Shown here: positions 1,937 to 60,074 of the stretch, one piece after another
How positions within the stretch are numbered: position 1 is the first letter of the stretch
Layout of the letters: every line of letters begins with the position of its first letter
From: Flavobacteriales bacterium
Lineage (GTDB): Bacteria; Bacteroidota; Bacteroidia; Flavobacteriales_C; GCA-002722245
NCBI GenBank assembly: GCA_038154685.1
Contig: JAYPYW010000004.1
Location: 32,473 to 96,472, forward strand
Direction: 5' to 3'
Length of the DNA: 64,000 nucleotides
Notes under the pieces: model-generated
The model's input: the letters and a program-made list of their open reading frames with translations, nothing else
Databases searched by the model: none
What the model was told of the DNA's origin: nothing
Program-made: the position numbers and the translations under genes

Positions 1937-3067
1937 TTAATCACCGTCTCCTGAACTATAAGTAATACTAATTCCTAAAATTGAACTTAATGAACTTTTA
2001 AAATTCGCGGTGTTGTCTTGTAATTTGTCCCTTAATGTTTCAATCGCAGGATCAGCAATGTTATCAGATAATTTACCCGCTGGAAGAGCATTAATTAAAT
2101 CTTCGATTTGAGTGATTGTAGTGTTTGTTTGGGTAGCTAATTCCGGTCCACCAACTAACACAGCTAAGTACTCTTCAAATCCTTGAATATTTGTGCCATC
2201 TTTTGATGTACCACTCCAAATATTAGTACAACTTTTAAAATGCTCAACAATTAAATCTCTTGAAATCCCGCTATAATAAGCTTCAACCAATGTTGGGTCT
2301 GGAGTTTCAAACCCAGCAGTTAACCCAGCAGGAAGTTCCAGTTTAAAGTTTTTCAAGTTTTCATAATCCTTTACAAAATCATTGTAGTAAAGAGACAATG
2401 AACTACCAGCAGATGTACCTGTACTTGCAATAAAATCAGCTCTGTAAGAACCATTCCATTCGGCTACTATGTTGTCGAAAGTAGATTTAAGTTCATTAAC
2501 GATTAAAAGTAAGTAAGCCTTTCTGTCTGCATCAAAAGATGAAACTATATCGGCATCACTTAATCCTTCTCGGTAAATTAAATATTCTATAGCATAAAAG
2601 CCTCTGATGTCTTTACTGAAGCTATTTGGAAGGTCAAAGCTATCATCAACAATATTTGCTTCTACTGCAGATTCGTTAACTGGAAAAACTCCCAATACGG
2701 AAGCATAAGGCCCTAATAACAATTTTCCCGGACCAAAACCAAATGCAGAACAATGCTGATGTGCCATAGCAGCATCAACCCATGCTTCTCTAGTTGCAAT
2801 TAGATTCGCCTCATTAGAGGTAGTATTAAATGTTTCGATAGCCGTTTTTAAATCATTTACCTCTGTTTGAAGGGTTTCAAAGTTTGGGATAATTAATAGG
2901 TCAGCCACGTCAGTTAACATTGCAGCCCTATCAAAATTATCAGAGTTATCGTCGTCTTTTTTGTTGGATTTGTTGTTACAAGATGAAAGGGTAAATCCAA
3001 CAATAAGGACAGTTAAAAACAAGGCTTTTAAATTCTTTGTTTTTCCCAATAGAGTGTTGAAATTCAT
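1937..3067 (-). CDS. imelysin-like (peptidase M75 family) lipoprotein
   Basis: Lipoprotein signal (…FTLSSCNNK) and a HQHCSAFGFGPG-type segment. It lies between the HTTM and DUF4856-like genes as in the conserved cluster. The family is assigned from memory. Confidence 0.45.
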   Translation of the reverse strand: MNFNTLLGKTKNLKALFLTVLIVGFTLSSCNNKSNKKDDDNSDNFDRAAMLTDVADLLIIPNFETLQTEVNDLKTAIETFNTTSNEANLIATREAWVDAAMAHQHCSAFGFGPGKLLLGPYASVLGVFPVNESAVEANIVDDSFDLPNSFSKDIRGFYAIEYLIYREGLSDADIVSSFDADRKAYLLLIVNELKSTFDNIVAEWNGSYRADFIASTGTSAGSSLSLYYNDFVKDYENLKNFKLELPAGLTAGFETPDPTLVEAYYSGISRDLIVEHFKSCTNIWSGTSKDGTNIQGFEEYLAVLVGGPELATQTNTTITQIEDLINALPAGKLSDNIADPAIETLRDKLQDNTANFKSSLSSILGISITYSSGDGD

Positions 3068-3084
3068 AGCTTATGAAATTGGAA

Positions 3085-3116
3085 AACCCCGTGAAAATCA
3101 CGGGGTGATTTTTTTA
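3085..3116. terminator. bidirectional rho-independent terminator hairpin
   Basis: ccccgtga-aaa-tcacgggg stem (3087-3105) followed by a T-run on the + strand and flanked by an A-run. It lies between the 3' ends of the DUF4856-like and imelysin-like genes. Confidence 0.6.
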
Positions 3117-3124
3117 AATTAATC

Positions 3125-4240
3125 TTAGTTACTTACGTAGAAAGAAGTTACCTCTGCACTTGTAAATCCGTAGATAGTTTTAATCTTATCTTCTATTGAA
3201 TTCAAATTAGCGATTAAAGATGCTTCATTTAGGAATTTGTAGCTCTCTGGAGTTTCACCTGCTTCTGCTAAGAATAATGCTAAAATTTCATCAATTTGAG
3301 TATCTGTAATTATTTTGTTACTTACTCCTCTGAATCCCATTGTAAAACCAACACCTTCAGAATAAGCATGTAAAGCGTCACCTAGTTTTTCATCCTTTTC
3401 AACTCCAGATAAAGAAGCTGCTTCAGTTAACATGGTTCTTGTTCCATTACAGTAGTTAATAACTGTAGCGAAGTTTGATTTTTCCCAAGCAATTAAGTAT
3501 GCTTCAACAGCTTCATCGCGCTCAGTGCTGTATGCGTCTCCAGCTTCAATAGCTGCTTTTGCCTTTAAACAAGCATTTTTAACATCGTAAAAGAACCCTG
3601 TTTTGTTGGTGTTATCTGATCTTCTTTTTGCATATTTTGCAGCAAAACCTGCATCATCAGCTGAGAAACTCGCGTCAGTACCAAAAATTTCAACTAACCT
3701 GTCGATAGCATCACTAGTTGATAAGCTTCCACCAATAATAGCTGTAGCATGGTTGTATAAGGCGGCCCCATAGCTTCCTTTATCTAACATTTGCTCAAGC
3801 TCTAAACCATTTTCGTCCAATAATCTGGTTCCTAAAATTCCTCCTTCTTCATCCACAGCCGGTGATCCTGACCCAGGGTTTTGGAAAGCATTATCATCGT
3901 TAACTGCTTTAACTATTTCATCAATCCATCCATTAACATATGTTTTGTAGGTTGGAACAGTAACAAAAGTTAAGTTCGGACCATAAGGAAGGTCAGCAGA
4001 TGTAATAGTATGACTAGGGTCAGCAACTAATGCTCCTTCTGCTGTATTAGCACCACCTGTCAATGCACTTAAATCCGCAAGAACAGCTAATTCACCAGTC
4101 GTGTTTGCTTCATAATTCGCAGAAACATATTCGGTTGGGATAACCAATCCTGTTTCTTCAGTTTCTTCTTCTTTCTCCTCTTTTTTACAACCCACGAAAA
4201 TTAATCCTAGTGCTGCGATATATAGCCAATTTTTATTCAT
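3125..4240 (-). CDS. DUF4856-like lipoprotein, the usual companion of imelysin/HTTM
   Basis: Lipoprotein signal (LIFVGCKKEE). Its size and position in the cluster support the call. No catalytic motif was recognised. Confidence 0.4.
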   Translation of the reverse strand: MNKNWLYIAALGLIFVGCKKEEKEEETEETGLVIPTEYVSANYEANTTGELAVLADLSALTGGANTAEGALVADPSHTITSADLPYGPNLTFVTVPTYKTYVNGWIDEIVKAVNDDNAFQNPGSGSPAVDEEGGILGTRLLDENGLELEQMLDKGSYGAALYNHATAIIGGSLSTSDAIDRLVEIFGTDASFSADDAGFAAKYAKRRSDNTNKTGFFYDVKNACLKAKAAIEAGDAYSTERDEAVEAYLIAWEKSNFATVINYCNGTRTMLTEAASLSGVEKDEKLGDALHAYSEGVGFTMGFRGVSNKIITDTQIDEILALFLAEAGETPESYKFLNEASLIANLNSIEDKIKTIYGFTSAEVTSFYVSN

Positions 4241-4453
4241 GATAAACAGTTTTGTTTTAATGTGATTGCAAAGCTATGTTGTTTCCTAAATCCTGAAATA
4301 CCCTTTTTGTGGTATTATAACATTTTTCGACTCCAAAACCCTTTATATATAAGGGTTTGTTTATGATTTCCATATTCAAAAACTTATCGATTTTAGGACT
4401 AAAAAATGGAATAAAAGTATGCATCTAAAGAACCTTTCCGTAGCTTTGTTTTA

Positions 4454-5491
4454 ATGAAGGCCAGAATTAAAGATCAGCTTAACCTTACTTCTAAACTAAC
4501 ACCTACCAAATTGGTGAATAGTTTTAAGTTGTTAGCTAGTTTTTATTGGTCGAGAATCACAAAAAAACCAGTTCAATGGGGGTATCCTGCAAGCATATCG
4601 TTTGAACCTACTACTTCTTGTAATTTAAGATGTCCTGAATGCCCAAGCGGTTTACGTGCTTTTACCCGTCCAACTGGGATGTTGGAAAACAAGTTTTTTA
4701 AGGATTCAATTTTACAGCTTAAAAAGCAATTACATTATTTAACTTTTTATTTCCAGGGAGAACCTTATTTAAATCCAGCGTTTTTGGACATGGTGAAGTT
4801 CGCTCACGATAATAAAATCTATACGGCTACTTCAACCAATGCTCACTACCTGAAGCCAGAAATGGCTAGGAAAACGATTGAATCCGGTTTGGACCGGTTA
4901 ATTATTTCCATTGATGGTACAACTCAAGATACATATGAATCCTATAGAGTAGGAGGTAAGTTAGATAAGGTAATTGAAGGAGCTAAAAATATTATTGCTG
5001 CGAAAAAGGAAATGAATTCTTCCAAGCCTTTTGTAATATTCCAGTTCTTGGTTGTTAAGCCCAATGAGCATCAAATTGATGATGTATTGAAGTTGGGAAA
5101 GGAGATTGGTGTAGATGAAGTAAGATTAAAAACAGCTCAGGTTTACGATTATAAAAATGGAAACGAGTTAATTCCTTCCATCGATAAATATTCTCGCTAT
5201 TATCAAAAGAAAGACGGTACTTGGGGAGTTAAAAATCGAATGATTAACGCTTGTTGGAGAATGTGGCAAGGATGTGTTATTACCTGGAATGGAGGGATTG
5301 TTCCTTGTTGTTTCGATAAAGATGCTACTCACCAATTAGGGCAATTAGCTGAACAGGACTTTAAATCAATTTGGAAGGGTCAAAAGTACAAAGGTTTCCG
5401 TCAGGCAATTTTAAAATCTCGTTCAGAAATCGATATCTGTAAAAACTGTACAGAAGGAACCAAAGTTTGGGGAGAGAAGAGTGCTACCTAA
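4454..5491 (+). CDS. radical SAM enzyme with a C-terminal SPASM-like Cys-rich domain
   Basis: CxxxCxxC motif (SCNLRCPECPSG) followed by FQGEPYL. The C-terminus has cysteine clusters (CWRMWQGC...VPCCFDKD...CKNCTEG). Confidence 0.75.
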   Translation: MKARIKDQLNLTSKLTPTKLVNSFKLLASFYWSRITKKPVQWGYPASISFEPTTSCNLRCPECPSGLRAFTRPTGMLENKFFKDSILQLKKQLHYLTFYFQGEPYLNPAFLDMVKFAHDNKIYTATSTNAHYLKPEMARKTIESGLDRLIISIDGTTQDTYESYRVGGKLDKVIEGAKNIIAAKKEMNSSKPFVIFQFLVVKPNEHQIDDVLKLGKEIGVDEVRLKTAQVYDYKNGNELIPSIDKYSRYYQKKDGTWGVKNRMINACWRMWQGCVITWNGGIVPCCFDKDATHQLGQLAEQDFKSIWKGQKYKGFRQAILKSRSEIDICKNCTEGTKVWGEKSAT

Positions 5492-5589
5492 AGAGGTTTT
5501 AGATATTAGGTTTAAGGTTTCAGGAAGTAAATAAACTGGTTTCTCAATTCTGATTTCTGACTCCTGAAAATTATTCATAATTTCCCGCA

Positions 5590-7298: not shown

Positions 7299-8189
7299 CT
7301 ACTTTTTTTTTAATTCAGCTACAATTGAATCTGCAGCACCTTCTTCAGAATTAAAAGTAGATTGCAATCTTTTTAAAGATCCGTCTTCCTGACCAAGAGC
7401 AGTCCAAACTTCGTATTTCCCGTCAATTTTTTCAGCATAAACACCAAGTGGTAACTGGCAACCTCCGTTTAATTTATTTAAAACGCCTCTTTCGATATTG
7501 ATGATAGATTTAACTTCTGCGTTATTCATTTGGGAGACAAACTTTCTAGTTTGTTCATCGTTTGCGCGGATTTGTAACCCTAAAACACCTTGTGCCGGCG
7601 CTGGGATAAAATCTTGTGGCTTTAAAACTTCAACTTGAAATTCGGAAAGTTCAATTTCTAATCTTGATACTCCAGCGTTGGCTAAAACAATGGCATCATA
7701 ATTACCTTGTCTTAGTTTATCAATTCTAGTAGGTACATTACCCCTTAAGTCCTTGATTTCAATATCAGAGCGGAAAGTATTTAATAAAGCCTTTCTTCTT
7801 GCCGAAGAAGTTCCAACAATAGCTCCTTCTTTTAAAGCTAATTGTTTTGATGGATCGTAAGCATCTTTTTGAATAAGTAATATGTCCGAAGGATTTTCTC
7901 TATCAGATACAGCTACAATTTCCAACCCTTCAGGTTGATTAGTTTCTAAATCTTTATGCGAGTGAACGGCCAAATCAACTGATTCATTTAAAAGAGCCTC
8001 TTCAATTTCTTTGGTAAAGAATCCTTTACCTTCAAGCTTATCGAAACTTAGGTGTTGGATTTTATCTCCTTGGGTTTTGATAATGTTGATTTCAACCTCA
8101 CAACCCATTTTTTCCAATTCACCTTTAACAAAATTAGCCTGCCATAATGCAAGGTCACTTCCTCTTGTTCCGATTTTTATCAATGCCAT
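7299..8189 (-). CDS. hemC: porphobilinogen deaminase (hydroxymethylbilane synthase)
   Basis: MALIKIGTRGSDLALWQAN N-terminus and full-length similarity to HemC. Confidence 0.9.
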   Translation of the reverse strand: MALIKIGTRGSDLALWQANFVKGELEKMGCEVEINIIKTQGDKIQHLSFDKLEGKGFFTKEIEEALLNESVDLAVHSHKDLETNQPEGLEIVAVSDRENPSDILLIQKDAYDPSKQLALKEGAIVGTSSARRKALLNTFRSDIEIKDLRGNVPTRIDKLRQGNYDAIVLANAGVSRLEIELSEFQVEVLKPQDFIPAPAQGVLGLQIRANDEQTRKFVSQMNNAEVKSIINIERGVLNKLNGGCQLPLGVYAEKIDGKYEVWTALGQEDGSLKRLQSTFNSEEGAADSIVAELKKK

Positions 8190-8302
8190 ACGGTAAAGTT
8201 AATAAATCGAACATTGAACCAGTAATGAAATGAAACAATAAAGCGAAATATTTAAGCATGGGATTTAAATTGTTTTTATCTTTATGACGAACAGTTATTG
8301 GC

Positions 8303-8752
8303 ATGAAAAGAGCATTAAACAGAGTTTTATTTTTTGGAGCGTTAATTAGCTTATTCGCTTTTGCCCCAACTACAGATAAAGTTTACGTAGGAGTAACGGT
8401 TAAGAAAACTATTAGCCAGGTGAAGGAGAACCTTTTTGAATTATCAATTGTAGTTGAGAATGGAGATAAAATTAATGGAATCGCCAAGTACGAAGCTAAA
8501 CTTCCATTAACTGCTGATTTCGTTAAAGAGGTAAGTAGAGACAAATCTGTTAATTTCAAGATTGAAGGAAGAAAAGTAAAAATGATCTGGATGCATTTAC
8601 AGAAAAATGAATCTTATGAGGCTGTTTTTCAGTTCAGATCTAAATTGAATATCAATAAATTAAGAATGACGGGTAAATTAATGGGACATGAAAATGGAGT
8701 AAAGGTTATGTTTCCTGATAATAGCTCTCTGAATGTTGTTAATGCTGAATAA
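8303..8752 (+). CDS. hypothetical secreted protein
   Basis: Signal-peptide-like N-terminus and no recognisable domain. Its 3' end overlaps the aldehyde dehydrogenase gene convergently by 14 nt. Confidence 0.35.
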   Translation: MKRALNRVLFFGALISLFAFAPTTDKVYVGVTVKKTISQVKENLFELSIVVENGDKINGIAKYEAKLPLTADFVKEVSRDKSVNFKIEGRKVKMIWMHLQKNESYEAVFQFRSKLNINKLRMTGKLMGHENGVKVMFPDNSSLNVVNAE

Positions 8753-12904: not shown

Positions 12905-12976
12905 AGGTTGCGGACGGAATCGAACCGCCGTAGCAGGTTTTGCAGACCTGTGCCTAAGCCCCTCGGCCACGCAACC
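12905..12976 (-). tRNA. tRNA-Cys (anticodon GCA)
   Basis: Hand-folded reverse complement GGTTGCGTGGCCGAGGGGCTTAGGCACAGGTCTGCAAAACCTGCTACGGCGGTTCGATTCCGTCCGCAACCT. It has a 7-bp acceptor stem, anticodon stem CAGGT/ACCTG with loop CTGCAAA, T-loop TTCGATT and discriminator U. CCA is not encoded. Confidence 0.85.
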
Positions 12977-55632: not shown

Positions 55633-56859
55633 ATGTTATACTACTTATTTGAGTACTTAAACGAAATTGATTTCCCAGGAGCGGGAGCATTCCAGTTCAT
55701 TACAACTAGAGCTGCGTTTGCAATTATTGTGTCACTTATTATTTCGATGATTTTAGGAAAGAGAATCATCAAGATGTTGCACAAATTGCAAGTTGGTGAA
55801 ACAGTTAGAGATTTAGGTTTAGAAGGACAGTTAGAGAAGTCAGGAACACCGACAATGGGTGGCTTATTAATTTTGGCAGCTATCTTAATTCCTACTTTAC
55901 TATTCGCAAAGTTGGATAACATTTATATCATAATGTTATTGCTTTCAACAATTTGGCTTGGGCTGATTGGATTCTTAGATGATTATATTAAAGTATTTAA
56001 GAAGAATAAGGAAGGACTTAAAGGAAAAATGAAAGTTGTTGGTCAGATCGGAATAGGAGTGATCGTAGGAGCAACGCTTTTCTTTAGTGATGATGTTGTA
56101 ATAGCAGAAGAATCTCCAGAATCTACAATTGAATTAGTTGACGGGAAGGTTGAGAAAAATACGATCTGGGATCAGAAGAAATCGTTATCCACTACAATTC
56201 CATTCTTCAAGAATAACGAATTAAATTATGGAGATGCAGTTGAATGGATTGGTTTAGACCCAACGGAATGGGGATGGTTAGTTTTTATTCCAGTTGTAAT
56301 TGTAATTATCACGGCAGTTTCTAACGGTGCTAATTTAACCGATGGAATAGATGGTTTAGCAACTGGTACTTCCGCAATAATCGGAGTTGCTTTAGGTGTG
56401 CTTGCCTATGTATCAGGTAACGCCTTTTTCGCAGATTACTTAAATATTATGTACATCCCTGATACAGGTGAGTTAGTAATATTTATGGGAGCTTTTGTAG
56501 GAGCATGTATTGGGTTCTTATGGTACAATGCTTACCCTGCTCAAGTATTCATGGGAGACACTGGAAGTTTAGCTTTAGGTGGTATCATCGCAACATTCGC
56601 TATTGCTATCAGAAAGGAGTTATTGATTCCAATTTTATGCGGAATATTCTTAGTGGAAAACCTGAGTGTTATCATGCAGGTGGGATACTTCAAATACACA
56701 AAGAAAAAGTTTGGTGAAGGAAAGCGAATTTTCAAAATGGCGCCTTTACATCACCATTACCAAAAGTCTGGTTACCACGAAGCAAAAATTGTTAGTCGAT
56801 TCTGGATTGTAGGAATCTTACTAGCCATTTTCGCAATCGCTACACTTAAGCTTAGATAA
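55633..56859 (+). CDS. mraY: phospho-N-acetylmuramoyl-pentapeptide transferase
   Basis: Polytopic membrane protein with the NxxNxxDGxDGL motif ([14 protein letters not shown]). Confidence 0.9.
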
Positions 56860-56867
56860 AACAAAGA

Positions 56868-58208
56868 GTGAGCAAGCGATTAGTCATACTAGGTGCTGGG
56901 GAGAGCGGTGTTGGAGCTGCAATCCTAGGTAAACAAAAAAACTATGAGGTTTTTGTTTCCGATATGGGAACAATTGCCAAAAAATATAAAGACGTTCTTT
57001 CAAGAGAAGAAATCTCATTTGAGGAAACAAAACATACCAAAGAGCAAATACTAAATGCTGATGTTGTTGTTAAAAGTCCAGGAATTCCTGATTCGGCTCC
57101 TTTAATTGTGGAGTTAAGAAACCAAGGTACTCAAGTTATCTCCGAGATAGAATTTGGGTCTTGGTACACGAAAGCCAAGTTAATTGGAATCACAGGAAGT
57201 AACGGTAAAACAACTACAACAAGCCTTACTTATCATATTTTGAAAAGTGCAGGTTTAAATGTAGGAGTTGGTGGTAACATTGGTGATAGTTTCGCGCTTC
57301 AGGTGGCAACATGTGATTACGATTATTATGTGTTGGAGTTGAGCAGTTTTCAATTAGATGGTATTAAAAAACTGAAATTAGATGTATCAATTTTATTAAA
57401 TATCACACCAGATCATCTGGATAGATATGACTACAGCCTAGACAAATACATCGATTCGAAGTTCCAATTGGTAAAAAACTTCGACGAAAATTCGGTTTTT
57501 ATTTACAATTCTGATGATGAAAACATCGCTAAAAAACTCCAAAATGTAACCCTTCCTAAATCGGTTTATCAATTCAGTTTGAGTAAGTTAACTGGTGTAG
57601 GTGCAGGGGTCAAAGACAGGAATATATTAATAGATATTAACAACCCTATGCTGATATCTGTTGATAGTGTTTCCTTGAAAGGCAAGCATAATTCGTATAA
57701 TATTATGGCATCTGTTTCAGCGGCATGTGTTTTAGGCATTGATGAAAAGAAAATTTTAGTTGCTGTGGAATCTTTTCAGCCTATCGAGCACAGAATGGAA
57801 CGGGTAGTTGTTCTTAACGGAGTTGAATATATCAATGACTCAAAGGCTACTAATGTGGATAGTACCTTTTATGCATTGGAAAGTATGGACAACAACGTTA
57901 TTTGGATTGCTGGTGGTGTGGACAAGGGGAATGATTATTCCCAACTTATCCCTTTAGTAAAATCCAAAGTTTATGGTATGGTTTGCTTAGGCAAGGATAA
58001 CGAAAAGTTGCATGCAGCTTTCGGAGGAATTGTTGAGCGAATCGAAGATGCAAGTAGTGCTGATGAGGCAGTAAAAAGGGCTTCTGCAATGGCAGAAGAG
58101 GGGTTCACTGTGTTGTTGTCACCAGCTTGTGCAAGTTTTGATTTGTTTTCGAATTACGAGGACCGTGGAAGAAAATTTAAAGAAGGAATAACCAAACTAA
58201 ACGAGTAA
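56868..58208 (+). CDS. murD: UDP-N-acetylmuramoylalanine–D-glutamate ligase
   Basis: Rossmann N-terminus, GITGSNGKTTTT P-loop and full C-terminal domain (…VLLSPACASFDLFSNYEDRG…). Confidence 0.9.
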   Translation: MSKRLVILGAGESGVGAAILGKQKNYEVFVSDMGTIAKKYKDVLSREEISFEETKHTKEQILNADVVVKSPGIPDSAPLIVELRNQGTQVISEIEFGSWYTKAKLIGITGSNGKTTTTSLTYHILKSAGLNVGVGGNIGDSFALQVATCDYDYYVLELSSFQLDGIKKLKLDVSILLNITPDHLDRYDYSLDKYIDSKFQLVKNFDENSVFIYNSDDENIAKKLQNVTLPKSVYQFSLSKLTGVGAGVKDRNILIDINNPMLISVDSVSLKGKHNSYNIMASVSAACVLGIDEKKILVAVESFQPIEHRMERVVVLNGVEYINDSKATNVDSTFYALESMDNNVIWIAGGVDKGNDYSQLIPLVKSKVYGMVCLGKDNEKLHAAFGGIVERIEDASSADEAVKRASAMAEEGFTVLLSPACASFDLFSNYEDRGRKFKEGITKLNE

Positions 58209-58223
58209 AATTTAATTAAAGTC

Positions 58224-58772
58224 ATGACAAAGGGAAATTTTGAATTCCAAAACAAACTAAGCATCGGTGACACGATGGCTGAGAACTTAAAACAAAACGT
58301 TGGGAACTTAAGAAAGGAAAGCTTAAGAGAAAAGTTTAGTGATTTTGAAAATGTTGAGCACAGATTAGAATTTGTGGCGAATGTACATGGTATTGAGTAC
58401 ATCAATGATTCAAAAGCTACTAATGTGAATTCAACTTGGTATGCGTTAGAAAGAATGCAAAGAGAAACTATTTGGATTGTTGGGGGTGTTGACAAAACAG
58501 TAGATTACTCTTCTTTACAGGAATTAGCTAAAGAAAAAGTAAGAGCTATTGTTTATATTGGGACCAACAAATCAAAAGTCTTTGAAAACTTTTTAGATAA
58601 AGTAGATATGATTGTAGATGCAGGATCAATGGAAGAAGCGGTTCAAATGGCATACTACATTGCAGACAAAGGGGAGACTGTTTTACTATCTCCTGCTTCA
58701 GCGAGCTTTAACATGTTCGAGAACCTAGAGGAAAGGGGGAATACTTTCAAACAAGCTGTAAGAAGCTTATAA
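58224..58772 (+). CDS. standalone paralogue of the MurD C-terminal domain (Mur-ligase C-terminal domain only, no ATPase core)
   Basis: 182 aa with a 45-aa unique N-terminus, then HRLEFVANVHGIEYINDSKATNVNSTWYALERM…IWIVGGVDKTVDY…VLLSPASASFNMFENLEERGNTFKQAVRSL. This aligns end-to-end with murD residues ~300-446 at roughly 45% identity. Confidence 0.7.
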   Translation: MTKGNFEFQNKLSIGDTMAENLKQNVGNLRKESLREKFSDFENVEHRLEFVANVHGIEYINDSKATNVNSTWYALERMQRETIWIVGGVDKTVDYSSLQELAKEKVRAIVYIGTNKSKVFENFLDKVDMIVDAGSMEEAVQMAYYIADKGETVLLSPASASFNMFENLEERGNTFKQAVRSL

Positions 58773-58922
58773 AACAAATTTGCTATGGCACGAGTTAAGC
58801 CGGATAAGAGTTTTGAGAAACGTCATCTCGCAACTATTGTCCTTTCTAGTGTATTATTGTTTTTGATTTTTAGTACTGTGTGGGTGATTAAAAGAATTAA
58901 GACAGGAGTATTATAAAGTCAA

Positions 58923-60074
58923 ATGCAGGAGATTTATAACAAAATATATGGTGACAAAGTCATCTGGGGCGTTATCATTTCTCTTGCCTTACTTTCGATT
59001 CCTATTGTTTATGTAGGAACGGAACAATTAGCGTTACTGCGGGGAGGTAACTTCTTTTATTTCGTGATTAAACACGCAATAATTTTGTTAAGTGCCTTTG
59101 TCATTGCTTACCAAGTTTCAAAAATTAAACATGGTTACCTGTCGCGGCTCTCGCTAATTTTAATGGTAGTCACCATACCATTGCTACTCTACACAATGCT
59201 CGCAGGACATAGTGTTGATTCAGCAGAAAGGTGGATCAAAATTCCCGTCATTGGTTTAAGTTTCCAAACCTCTGATTTCGCAAAAATTTCATTAACTATT
59301 TATTTAGCCAGAGTCCTCAGCAGAAAGCAAGGGGACTTAGATGATTTTAAAGAGGTAGTAAAACACTTGTTTTTGCCTGTTGTTTTAACTTGCGCTTTAA
59401 TCATCAAATCTGATTTCTCAACAGCTGCCCTTATCATGGGAGGTTGTTTTATCATGATGTTTTTTGGAGGGGTAAAGTTATCTCACTTCGGTATCATTTT
59501 ACTCGCCATTATTGGTTTATTTACAATTATGGTTTTGGTCTTTCCAGATAACTTACAAAGACTACAAACTTGGATTAACAGACTAACCGCTTTTACTGCT
59601 GAAAATGCTGATGCAGGAAGTGGGAATTATCAAAAGAATTTAGCTCAGGCATCTATTTATGATGGAGGAGCTGTTGGTTTATGGTTTGATATCTTACCTG
59701 GTAAATACGGTCAGCCACCACAAGCTGCTTCCGATTTTATTTACGCAACTATTTTAAGGAATTACGGATTGATTGGTGGTGTTTTCACCATTTTCATGTA
59801 CCTCATATTATTCTTCCGAAGCATTAAAATTGCAAGGAAGTGCAATAAATTATTTTCAGTTCTATTGGTAATTGGATTGTCATCAGGACTAGTTCTCCAA
59901 GCCTTTAGTAACATGGCTGTAGCCGTTGGGATATTCCCAGTAACTGGTCAGCCCCTTCCCATGGTAAGTATGGGAGGAACATCGCTGTGGTTCACAGCAA
60001 TTTCAATTGGAATCATACTTAGTATAAGTAGAGAAATAAGTAGCAATTCTCCTACAGATGAAGAAATCGCCTAG
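58923..60074 (+). CDS. ftsW: peptidoglycan glycosyltransferase FtsW (SEDS family)
   Basis: 10-TM SEDS protein in the ftsW slot (…SDFIYATILRNYGLIGG…). Confidence 0.85.
   Translation: MQEIYNKIYGDKVIWGVIISLALLSIPIVYVGTEQLALLRGGNFFYFVIKHAIILLSAFVIAYQVSKIKHGYLSRLSLILMVVTIPLLLYTMLAGHSVDSAERWIKIPVIGLSFQTSDFAKISLTIYLARVLSRKQGDLDDFKEVVKHLFLPVVLTCALIIKSDFSTAALIMGGCFIMMFFGGVKLSHFGIILLAIIGLFTIMVLVFPDNLQRLQTWINRLTAFTAENADAGSGNYQKNLAQASIYDGGAVGLWFDILPGKYGQPPQAASDFIYATILRNYGLIGGVFTIFMYLILFFRSIKIARKCNKLFSVLLVIGLSSGLVLQAFSNMAVAVGIFPVTGQPLPMVSMGGTSLWFTAISIGIILSISREISSNSPTDEEIA

Follow-up and report, generated by a model that had tools for sequence, protein, structure and literature searches.

A stand-alone MurD C-terminal domain encoded between murD and ftsW in uncultured Flavobacteriales, a candidate trans-acting modulator of D-glutamate addition

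The 64-kb stretch of DNA analysed here (the window, to which all coordinates refer unless a locus is named) comes from contig JAYPYW010000004.1 of the Flavobacteriales bacterium GCA_038154685.1. It carries, on the + strand, a division and cell wall (dcw) cluster typical of Bacteroidota, with the genes ftsL-like, ftsI, murE, mraY, murD, ftsW, murG, murC and ftsQ. Inserted in this cluster is an open reading frame (ORF) of 182 amino acids (aa) that encodes a paralogue of the C-terminal domain of MurD. An initial annotation, made from the sequence alone, had placed this ORF 15 nucleotides (nt) past the murD stop and ahead of ftsW, and the coordinates agree:

56868..58208, + strand: complete murD of 446 aa, from which the duplication arose; it comprises the N-terminal, central ATPase and C-terminal domains
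58209..58223, + strand: AT-rich spacer of 15 nt (AATTTAATTAAAGTC) from the murD stop to the ATG of the paralogue
58224..58772, + strand: murD-C paralogue ORF, ATG start, 182 aa and a stop codon
58923..60074, + strand: ftsW, 383 aa, the downstream neighbour (Pfam FTSW_RODA_SPOVE, E 1.3e-59)

The only Pfam family matched by the paralogue is Mur_ligase_C (PF02875; residues 46-158, 44.9 bits against a gathering threshold of 28.4), in line with the initial annotation, which had read the ORF as a Mur-ligase C-terminal domain and nothing else. The three motifs named there (INDSKATN, IW(I)xGGxDK and VLLSPAxASF) are found as YINDSKATNV (59-68), IWIVGGVDK (83-91) and VLLSPASASF (153-162), and the P-loop core and N-terminal Rossmann domain that it had reported missing are missing indeed: no P-loop (GxxGK[ST]) is visible in the translation of the paralogue, Mur_ligase_M is not matched, and neither is MurD_N or MurD-like_N, whereas the upstream murD matches both of the latter. 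This murD, which ends with a TAA stop at 58206-58208, contains MurD_N, Mur_ligase_M and Mur_ligase_C and scores 401.6 bits with TIGR01087 (murD), above the cut-off. The paralogue aligns with positions 288-440 of the 441 of the same model and reaches 167.4 bits, below the cut-off of 211.95. By profile score and fold it is a Mur_ligase_C domain protein; by the equivalog criteria of TIGR01087 it is not a MurD enzyme, on account of its score and of the absent N-terminal and central domains. Since the UDP-binding and ATPase domains are absent, the paralogue alone cannot act as a ligase. Some database records name proteins of this type cyanophycin synthetase, others MurD or hypothetical protein. The first of these names was rejected, TIGR02068 and NF010623 giving no match to the paralogue at E <= 0.01. 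Its sole further model match is PRK11930 (bifunctional MurF/alanine racemase), at 20 bits, and no model specific for it was found in NCBIfam or PHROG.

Aligned with the C-terminus of the cis MurD, the paralogue is identical at 74 of 142 core positions (52%, E 1e-46) and at 78 of 182 over its full length (43%), which makes the earlier figure of about 45% a fair one. The nucleotide identity of the two copies is 58%; it peaks at 0.8 only across residues 56-90, the NDSKATN-GGVDK core, and stays at 0.3-0.6 elsewhere, so that it is confined to the conserved core, as had been noticed before. The longest exact run shared by the two window copies is 12 nt and dS is saturated at 2.9. Taken together, these values rule out a duplication made by the assembly, and a recent gene conversion was rejected on the same grounds.

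In a search of 5.8 billion proteins, intact paralogue proteins of 180-183 aa were recovered in more than 100 clusters, at identities between 100% and about 60%. The N-terminus MTKGNFEFQ..GDTMAENLK and the diagnostic differences from MurD are common to all paralogue clusters found. When one genome per GTDB species was scanned, the paralogue was present in 21 species, all of them uncultured Flavobacteriales (marine, lake and groundwater); these and three further arrangements from metagenome contigs make up the 24 loci analysed here. At each of the 24 loci, a spacer of 3-43 nt separates a full-length murD (440-468 aa) from an intact ORF of 180-184 aa downstream of it, and ftsW lies downstream of the paralogue in all but one, L013, where there is no ftsW within 500 nt. 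The syntenic orthologues that the initial annotation had proposed to look for exist, at 24 loci and in 21 GTDB species. The paralogues are monophyletic, and the branching within their clade follows that of the neighbouring MurD proteins, indicating one old duplication followed by vertical descent. Since, in addition, the GC content is uniform across the window cluster (36-38%), there is no sign of recent transfer, and a foreign origin was rejected.

That the ORF could be a non-functional remnant, an assembly artefact or a read-through extension of MurD is an explanation to which we assign a negligible probability. Read-through finds some support in the window, where the ORF is in frame with murD and the spacer holds no in-frame stop. 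Across the loci, the frame of the paralogue is that of murD in 14 cases and differs in 10, and several spacers hold stop codons; read-through or fusion was discarded for these reasons. A split murD fails as an explanation, for in 24/24 loci the upstream MurD has its full length of 440-468 aa and a Mur_ligase_C domain of its own. A pseudogene or decaying duplicate was rejected as well, the ORF being intact at 180-184 aa at 24/24 loci from independent assemblies, with ratios of non-synonymous to synonymous substitution (dN/dS) of 0.01-0.03.

The latter values come from pairwise Nei-Gojobori (NG86) estimates, for which only pairs with unsaturated dS were used. They refer to the core of the paralogue; for the cis C-domain of MurD dN/dS is 0.06-0.15, and for the N-terminal and central domains of MurD it is 0.09-0.28, mostly 0.13-0.2. 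Protein identities follow the same trend. In the marine subclade, the paralogue is conserved at 93-98%, compared with 84-95% for MraY, 82-97% for FtsW, 86-96% for MurG and 68-92% for MurD; in the deepest comparisons it is level with MraY (76-77%). The paralogue is the best-conserved protein of the murE-murC segment, and by these comparisons no enzyme of the operon, not even the most conserved one, is under tighter constraint. The initial annotation had taken the duplication to be ancient and held by selection rather than decaying, and this view is borne out by intact ORFs in 24/24 loci, by a monophyletic and MurD-congruent tree and by purifying selection among the orthologues (dN/dS 0.01-0.03); frameshifted orthologues, relaxed selection or an identical nucleotide copy, any of which would have spoken against it, were not found. 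Collectively, these data show that the gene originated long ago, when the ~182 codons at the end of murD were duplicated in tandem, and that it has since descended vertically in uncultured Flavobacteriales of one family-level lineage, where purifying selection on it has been very strong. The duplicated stretch comprises the helices at the end of the central domain and the whole of domain 3.

In the lineage with the paralogue, full-length MurD is less conserved than any other protein of murE-murC within the marine subclade, and among the least conserved at depth; between the window and L015 or L004, for instance, MurD is 49-52% identical, compared with 69% for MurE and 60-62% for MurG. In this small sample, the MurD/MurE identity ratio is ~0.73 in the paralogue clade and ~1.0 in Bacteroidales pairs without paralogue, where MurD is 58-63% and MurE 57-60% identical. 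This faster evolution may reflect a relaxed or shifted constraint on MurD.

The paralogue was modelled with AlphaFold2 from a 42-sequence alignment, and residue conservation was compared between 38 paralogue family members and 36 MurD C-domains. Its parts are, with the corresponding residues of Escherichia coli MurD:

58224..58343, + strand: N-terminal 40 residues, what remains, in diverged form, of the helices that end the MurD central domain (the next part starts at 58344)
58344..58769, + strand: residues 41-182, Mur ligase C-terminal (domain 3) fold, from AlphaFold2 and Foldseek
58356..58364, + strand: E45-H46-R47, corresponding to H301 and R302; invariant in the paralogue family and in MurD
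58404..58424, + strand: N61-DSKAT-N67 loop, corresponding to D317, K319 and T321; invariant in the paralogue family
58482..58496, + strand: G87-GVD-K91 loop, corresponding to K348; followed by a family-specific T/N-V/T-DY where MurD has GNDY
58689..58739, + strand: S156-PASASFNMFENLEERG-172, corresponding to S415, L416, F422, R425 and G426

The N-terminal 40 residues align with residues ~263-302 of MurD, only 4/40 being identical. The GxHNxxN motif, which lines the adenine pocket in E. coli MurD structures, is degenerate in this segment: its G, H, N and N are conserved in MurD and variable here. The segment is nonetheless under purifying selection, with dN/dS of 0-0.07 in most within-subclade pairs and up to 0.2. 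In the model, residues 1-45 have a predicted local distance difference test (pLDDT) score below 50, whereas residues 46-182 are mostly above 90. The best Foldseek matches are MurD structures, aligned over ~141-145 columns with a query TM-score (TMq) of ~0.7 and a root-mean-square deviation (rmsd) of 1.7-2.9 Å (for 7u35, TMq 0.70 and rmsd 1.7 Å). The core answers in this way to the Rossmann-like six-stranded sheet fold of Mur_ligase_C.

Within the domain-3 fold, the positions equivalent to E. coli H301, R302, D317, K319, T321, N322, K348, S415, L416, N421, R425 and G426 are at least 90% conserved in the paralogue and the same as in MurD. In published E. coli MurD structures these residues contact ATP or D-glutamate (D-Glu), H301 and R302 being nucleotide-side contacts and K348 a contact of the D-Glu carboxylate. 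In the numbering of the paralogue, the MurD-identical positions conserved at this level are H46, R47, N61-N67, G87, G88, D90, K91, S156, P157, A158, A160, S161, F162, N167, R171 and G172. The ligand-facing residues are thus kept although the two copies share only ~50% identity. On the other hand, several changes are specific to the family. In the S156-172 segment, C is replaced by S/A, D by N163, F/Y by L168 and D by E170; elsewhere, C is replaced by Y111, the conserved D at 115 is lost, N becomes K116, and GN becomes T/N-V/T after K91. The fixed family-specific changes cluster in loops that, going by Mur ligase structures, presumably lie on one edge of the sheet. About 20 more positions that are variable in MurD are invariant in the paralogue, which thus retains one half of an active site, with a remodelled rim and additional conserved positions.

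The roles put forward by the initial annotation, namely a regulator or decoy, a partner, or a domain supplied in trans, seem to form the right shortlist of candidates. Among the possible roles is that of a free-standing binder of D-Glu or UDP-MurNAc-dipeptide, acting as a buffer, chaperone or sensor that feeds back on D-Glu supply (e.g. glutamate racemase) or on division. The equivalents of the D-Glu contacts T321, K348, S415 and L416 of E. coli MurD are invariant, and the altered pocket rim hints that affinity or specificity has been tuned. We consider such a binder unlikely. The amino-acid site of MurD is complete only when domain 3 closes on the central domain, so that a weak affinity would be expected of the isolated domain, and the nucleotide-facing H46, R47, D62 and K64, which a binder of D-Glu alone would not need, are conserved too. 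It would also leave unexplained the carriage of MurD-C genes by phages and the degenerate family of Bacteroidia, both described below.

Stand-alone MurD C-terminal domains are not restricted to the window family. An exhaustive HMMER search of 1.84 billion cluster representatives revealed many other MurD-C-like proteins of 170-200 aa, without the GxHNxxN remnant, and the genomic context of several of them was viewed. P0130 (more than 24 contigs) and P0171 are encoded by genes flanked immediately by mraY and ftsW, in clusters that have no full-length murD; in these uncultured Bacteroidia the dcw order is ftsI-murE-mraY-[181/182-aa MurD C-domain protein]-ftsW-murG-murC. The MurD-C gene of this mraY-ftsW type is located as follows:

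L059-L061, 5001..5549: MurD-C gene between mraY and ftsW
L062, 5001..5546: the same
L058, 35..583: the same
L063, 836..1381: the same

In L059, the ORF begins 2 nt past the mraY stop. The P0130 family comprises at least 69 clusters from metagenome-assembled genomes (MAGs) of Bacteroidia and Bacteroidales, on contigs of up to 1.46 Mb, and all its proteins are 181-182 aa long, start with MTLEALALQG and contain Mur_ligase_C only. In this 'MTLEALALQG' (MTLE) family, the equivalent of K319 is mostly R and that of K348 is variable. In a neighbour-joining tree without support values, the MTLE and window families are separate, the former branching off from Bacteroidales MurD.

The window-family and MTLE proteins (181-182 aa) start where ordinary Bacteroidota MurD has a conserved internal Met (FTMSIHDLALQGKHN), at residue ~263 and, in the window murD, at about 57650; the start of the phage MurD-C proteins described below lies within ~15 residues of it. 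That the truncations converged on 182 aa may be due to an internal start codon that was already there, and internal initiation within a normal murD would be a possibility too. Matches of 182 aa at ~57% identity (P0106-P0120, starting MSIHDLALQGKHN) were tried as orthologues of the paralogue and excluded, being most simply fragments of ordinary murD that begin at the conserved internal Met; P0118 (locus L057), the one among them whose context was traced, lies in a frameshift-ridden assembly.

A different arrangement was found on contig L066, where murD is spread over two ORFs. The first, at 4231..4998 (+ strand), encodes 255 aa with the N-terminal and central domains and an intact P-loop, and is 42% identical to the window MurD; the second, at 5001..5585 (+ strand) and in another frame, encodes a C-domain of 194 aa. 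No close relatives of the 255-aa ORF and no family of ~255-aa proteins were found, the split arrangement being seen on this one contig only. It may be either a natural two-piece MurD or a frameshift error.

Two further observations may concern exchange between the copies. P0098 and P0103, 182-aa proteins from metagenome contigs of 1.2 and 2.2 kb, have a paralogue-like N-terminal half and a MurD-like C-terminal half (ICLGxDN, SPACASFDLF); they are either assembly chimeras of two similar copies or real recombinants. In L013 (JBLIAZ010000143.1, 1810..3754), murD and the paralogue share an exact run of 35 nt, as against 8-15 nt in the other loci, and this run may result from micro gene conversion. 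The same contig has a repeat-rich ORF downstream in place of ftsW, which, with no ftsW within 500 nt, indicates that it is rearranged or chimeric.

The intact half-site and the possible two-piece murD bear on another explanation, in which the paralogue would be an alternative catalytic domain 3. It would replace the cis domain on the MurD body or serve another Mur-type ligase, and provide a second specificity or kinetic mode, for example another amino acid at position 2 of the stem peptide. The catalytic half-site is indeed intact, and the systematic changes (Y111, K116, N163, L168, E170) fall in loops that face the incoming amino acid. The window MurE has a DNPR motif in its C-terminal domain, and Y111 and K116 presumably lie in the MurD loop that corresponds to it, going by Mur ligase structures. 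It would fit as well that MurD evolves faster in the clade and that murD may be naturally split on one contig. However, the cis catalytic positions are fully conserved in all 24 genomes, no Mur-type ligase devoid of a C-terminal domain is present in the window, where murE, murD and murC are complete, and we know of no report of unusual position-2 residues in the peptidoglycan of Flavobacteriia. An alternative catalytic domain is, in our view, quite improbable.

The immediate neighbourhood of the paralogue provides a further element:

58785..58916, + strand: small ORF, predicted single-pass membrane protein of 43 aa (MARVKPDKSFEKRHLATIVLSSVLLFLIFSTVWVIKRIKTGVL), between the paralogue and ftsW

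An ORF of like architecture (41-92 aa) is present at the same place in most clade loci, with dN/dS of about 0.1-0.35. The 43-aa protein matched no Pfam family. The small ORF is missing from L001, where the paralogue is kept, and from the ordinary flavobacterial locus L057; its product is a possible accessory part of the paralogue system. Because no terminator-like site is found on the + strand in 56500-59300, murD, the paralogue and ftsW are likely to be co-transcribed. The sole Rfam match in the window is a tRNA gene (12905..12976, - strand), so no RNA element accounts for the paralogue region.

These surroundings would fit a ligand-independent scaffold or adaptor, that is, of a domain-3 fold used as a protein-protein module that links the Mur ligases to MraY, MurG, FtsW or the small membrane protein, with the active-site residues kept for structure or for the interface. 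In every cellular lineage found, the stand-alone copy lies between murD (or mraY) and ftsW, and in most clade members it is followed by the small membrane-protein ORF. The Bacteroidia family is retained despite its degenerate ligand-binding lysines, and the positions variable in MurD and invariant in the paralogue point to a constraint beyond the MurD-conserved sites. Moreover, Mur-ligase folds are known as non-enzymatic or partner-binding units, as in the MurE-like plastid RNA polymerase subunits and in MurT/GatD (PMC6085368). Against such a role stands the survival of all MurD domain-3 ligand contacts through ~50% divergence in the window family, and in both phage copies, which would not be expected of a pure scaffold; L001, in turn, keeps the paralogue without the small membrane ORF. 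A scaffold is a genuine contender, although we judge it rather unlikely.

MurD-C genes are also carried by phages, or by contigs that resemble them:

L067 (IMGVR_UViG_3300011443_000030, temperate phage), 7992..8504, + strand: MurD-C-only gene of 170 aa in the early region, within an early/replication module
L065 (Logan SRR29078161 contig, 47.5 kb), 2995..3537, + strand: MurD-C-only P0155, 180 aa, motifs intact

The L067 phage encodes an integrase, a CI-like repressor, a RecE/YqaJ-type exonuclease, SNF2-type and DnaB-like helicases, a DnaD-like loader, an HNH endonuclease and a small terminase. All domain-3 motifs are intact in its MurD-C, which shows the ASFN variant, and no PHROG family covers the gene. 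In L065, P0155 is encoded among small unidirectional ORFs, three of which match PHROGs and one Pfam Phage_phiTE_072, matches that make the contig phage-like; in the 8.5 kb examined, structural genes were not encountered. The closest matches of the MurD-C proteins of L067 and L065 are not in the window family but among the C-termini of ordinary MurD from Bacteroidota (59% and 53%). When viruses were scanned with P0155, nothing matched, and BFVD yielded one weak unnamed match. The 28 tblastn matches among GenBank phages were unannotated short records, or full-length murD on bacterial-looking records, and are not used as evidence; L068 (IMG/VR) carries a full-length murD beside phage-like genes. 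Host-takeover genes are commonly located in the early region of phage genomes, and the phage MurD-C probably serves host takeover rather than housekeeping.

The existence of phage-borne MurD-C genes raises the question of whether the paralogue could be a phage-related decoy or an immunity factor, directed against phage MurD-C or other factors that target MurD domain 3. A defence gene would be expected to be patchy and fast-evolving, whereas the paralogue is a core, vertically inherited gene under extreme purifying selection. It is also placed inside the dcw operon rather than in a defence island, and the phage copies are not specifically related to it. A decoy or immunity role is therefore very unlikely.

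The explanation that we tentatively favour, granting it somewhat less than an even chance, is that the paralogue is a trans-acting MurD domain-3 module that would dock on MurD, or on another partner encoded in the dcw cluster, and modulate D-Glu addition. It keeps the half of the active site with which MurD binds D-Glu and encloses ATP and the acyl-phosphate, and from a retained half-site a non-covalent docking on a Mur-ligase body is to be expected. The likeliest docking place would be formed by the N-terminal and central domains of MurD, at the central-domain cleft, with MurD's own domain 3 swung open; the N-terminal 40 residues, conserved but predicted to be unstructured, could help docking. 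Once docked, the paralogue would adjust the addition of D-Glu and the flux of precursors, probably by restraining or gating them, and the control point would be the hand-over from the cytoplasmic pathway to MraY, MurG and FtsW.

Several lines of evidence are consistent with a trans-acting module. The ATP and D-Glu contacts are retained in the paralogue, and a MurD-C gene is found in the early region of the L067 phage as well as in the phage-like L065. The possible two-piece murD of L066 and the faster evolution of MurD in the paralogue clade, the latter seen in a small sample, point in the same direction. Furthermore, the MurD-C module seems to have been fixed several times with nearly the same N-terminal boundary, apparently independently in the MTLE family, which suggests that an isolated domain 3 has a useful activity in trans. 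A protein inhibitor that acts in trans on MurD, MigC, provides a precedent (PMC12208494).

Other points weigh against this explanation. The docking partner is conjectural. A tethered cis domain 3 should outcompete a free copy, unless the latter is abundant or binds more tightly. Since no genome has lost any catalytic motif from the cis domain, basic catalysis does not require the paralogue, and the rim of the D-Glu pocket differs (Y111, D115 lost, K116, N163, L168), so that the ligand or partner may have changed. A scaffold role fits the MTLE family better, given that the equivalents of K319 and K348 are replaced or variable there and that its genes have no full murD beside them. The tree lacks support values, which makes independent origins of the two families likely but not proven, and the split murD of L066 is a single contig without recurring relatives, possibly a frameshift error.

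A wider form of the same idea, credible but doubtful at present, is that MurD domain 3 with its preceding linker helices is a recurrently evolved trans modulator of the D-Glu-adding step, fixed several times in the dcw clusters of Bacteroidota, with a fully preserved half-site and tighter constraint than MurD in the window lineage and in the position of murD in other Bacteroidia, and captured by temperate phages, presumably to manipulate wall synthesis or division of the host.

Comparison with known systems helps to delimit what is particular to the paralogue. With domain 3 of MurD it shares the fold, the motifs EHR, NDSKATN, GGxDK, LLSPAxAS and RG, and its encoding in the dcw cluster; it differs from MurD by the absence of the UDP-binding domain, the central ATPase domain and the P-loop and by its score below the TIGR01087 cut-off, and from the cis domain by a rate four to six times slower at non-synonymous sites and by its own changes at the pocket rim. 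The MTLE proteins resemble it in their 181-182 aa, N-terminal boundary, sole Mur_ligase_C domain and position directly upstream of ftsW, but are the only murD-like gene between mraY and ftsW, have degenerate lysine equivalents and form a separate branch in the neighbour-joining tree. The phage proteins of L067 and L065 are likewise domain-3-only, at 170-180 aa, with all domain-3 motifs, but are encoded among phage genes and are closest to ordinary MurD C-termini.

Among proteins of other origin, MigC of Acinetobacter baumannii, a COG0523 protein, binds MurD and inhibits it non-competitively (PMC12208494). It is a separate protein that acts in trans on MurD and tunes precursor flux, as the paralogue would if it inhibited MurD; unlike the paralogue, it has an unrelated fold (GTPase), is not encoded in the dcw cluster and responds to zinc. 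In MurT, which pairs with GatD (PMC6085368), a Mur ligase central and C-terminal architecture works with a partner, and a MurE-like subunit of the plastid RNA polymerase (PDB 8qma, 8r6s, 8ras, 8w9z) is among the Foldseek matches of the paralogue. Both use the Mur ligase architecture in a partner or non-peptidoglycan complex, but they keep more than the C-terminal domain and resemble the paralogue little in sequence (11-19%). Searches of the literature brought up no account of a gene for a stand-alone MurD C-domain, and a paper on MurE-MurF gene order mentions none. The initial annotation, which knew of no equivalent gene described in any dcw cluster, is upheld in this respect; the gene is not isolated, however, since stand-alone MurD-C is common in uncultured Bacteroidia and is also carried by phages.

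As far as can be judged from its sequence and context, the paralogue probably represents a helper or regulator, undescribed so far, in the synthesis of cell-wall precursors. Because the MurD-C module is also present in many uncultured Bacteroidia and in phages, the question is a general one and not that of one MAG lineage. The Bacteroidia with the order mraY-[MurD-C]-ftsW pose a puzzle of their own, namely where their MurD activity is encoded, and the names now in use ('MurD', 'cyanophycin synthetase', 'hypothetical protein') imply that pipelines may count MurD-C as MurD when peptidoglycan pathways are reconstructed from MAGs. MurD is essential and a long-standing antibiotic target, and how flux through the Mur ligases is controlled is little known. 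The paralogue, which corresponds to the mobile domain 3 of MurD only, has its gene in the dcw cluster and matches MraY in conservation; it would offer a ready-made genetic probe of this control. If it binds the MurD body, it would provide a natural protein-protein interface that inhibitors could copy, and if MurD-C is a recurrent trans modulator, it would represent an undescribed layer of control on an antibiotic target and a natural inhibitor or partner of MurD.

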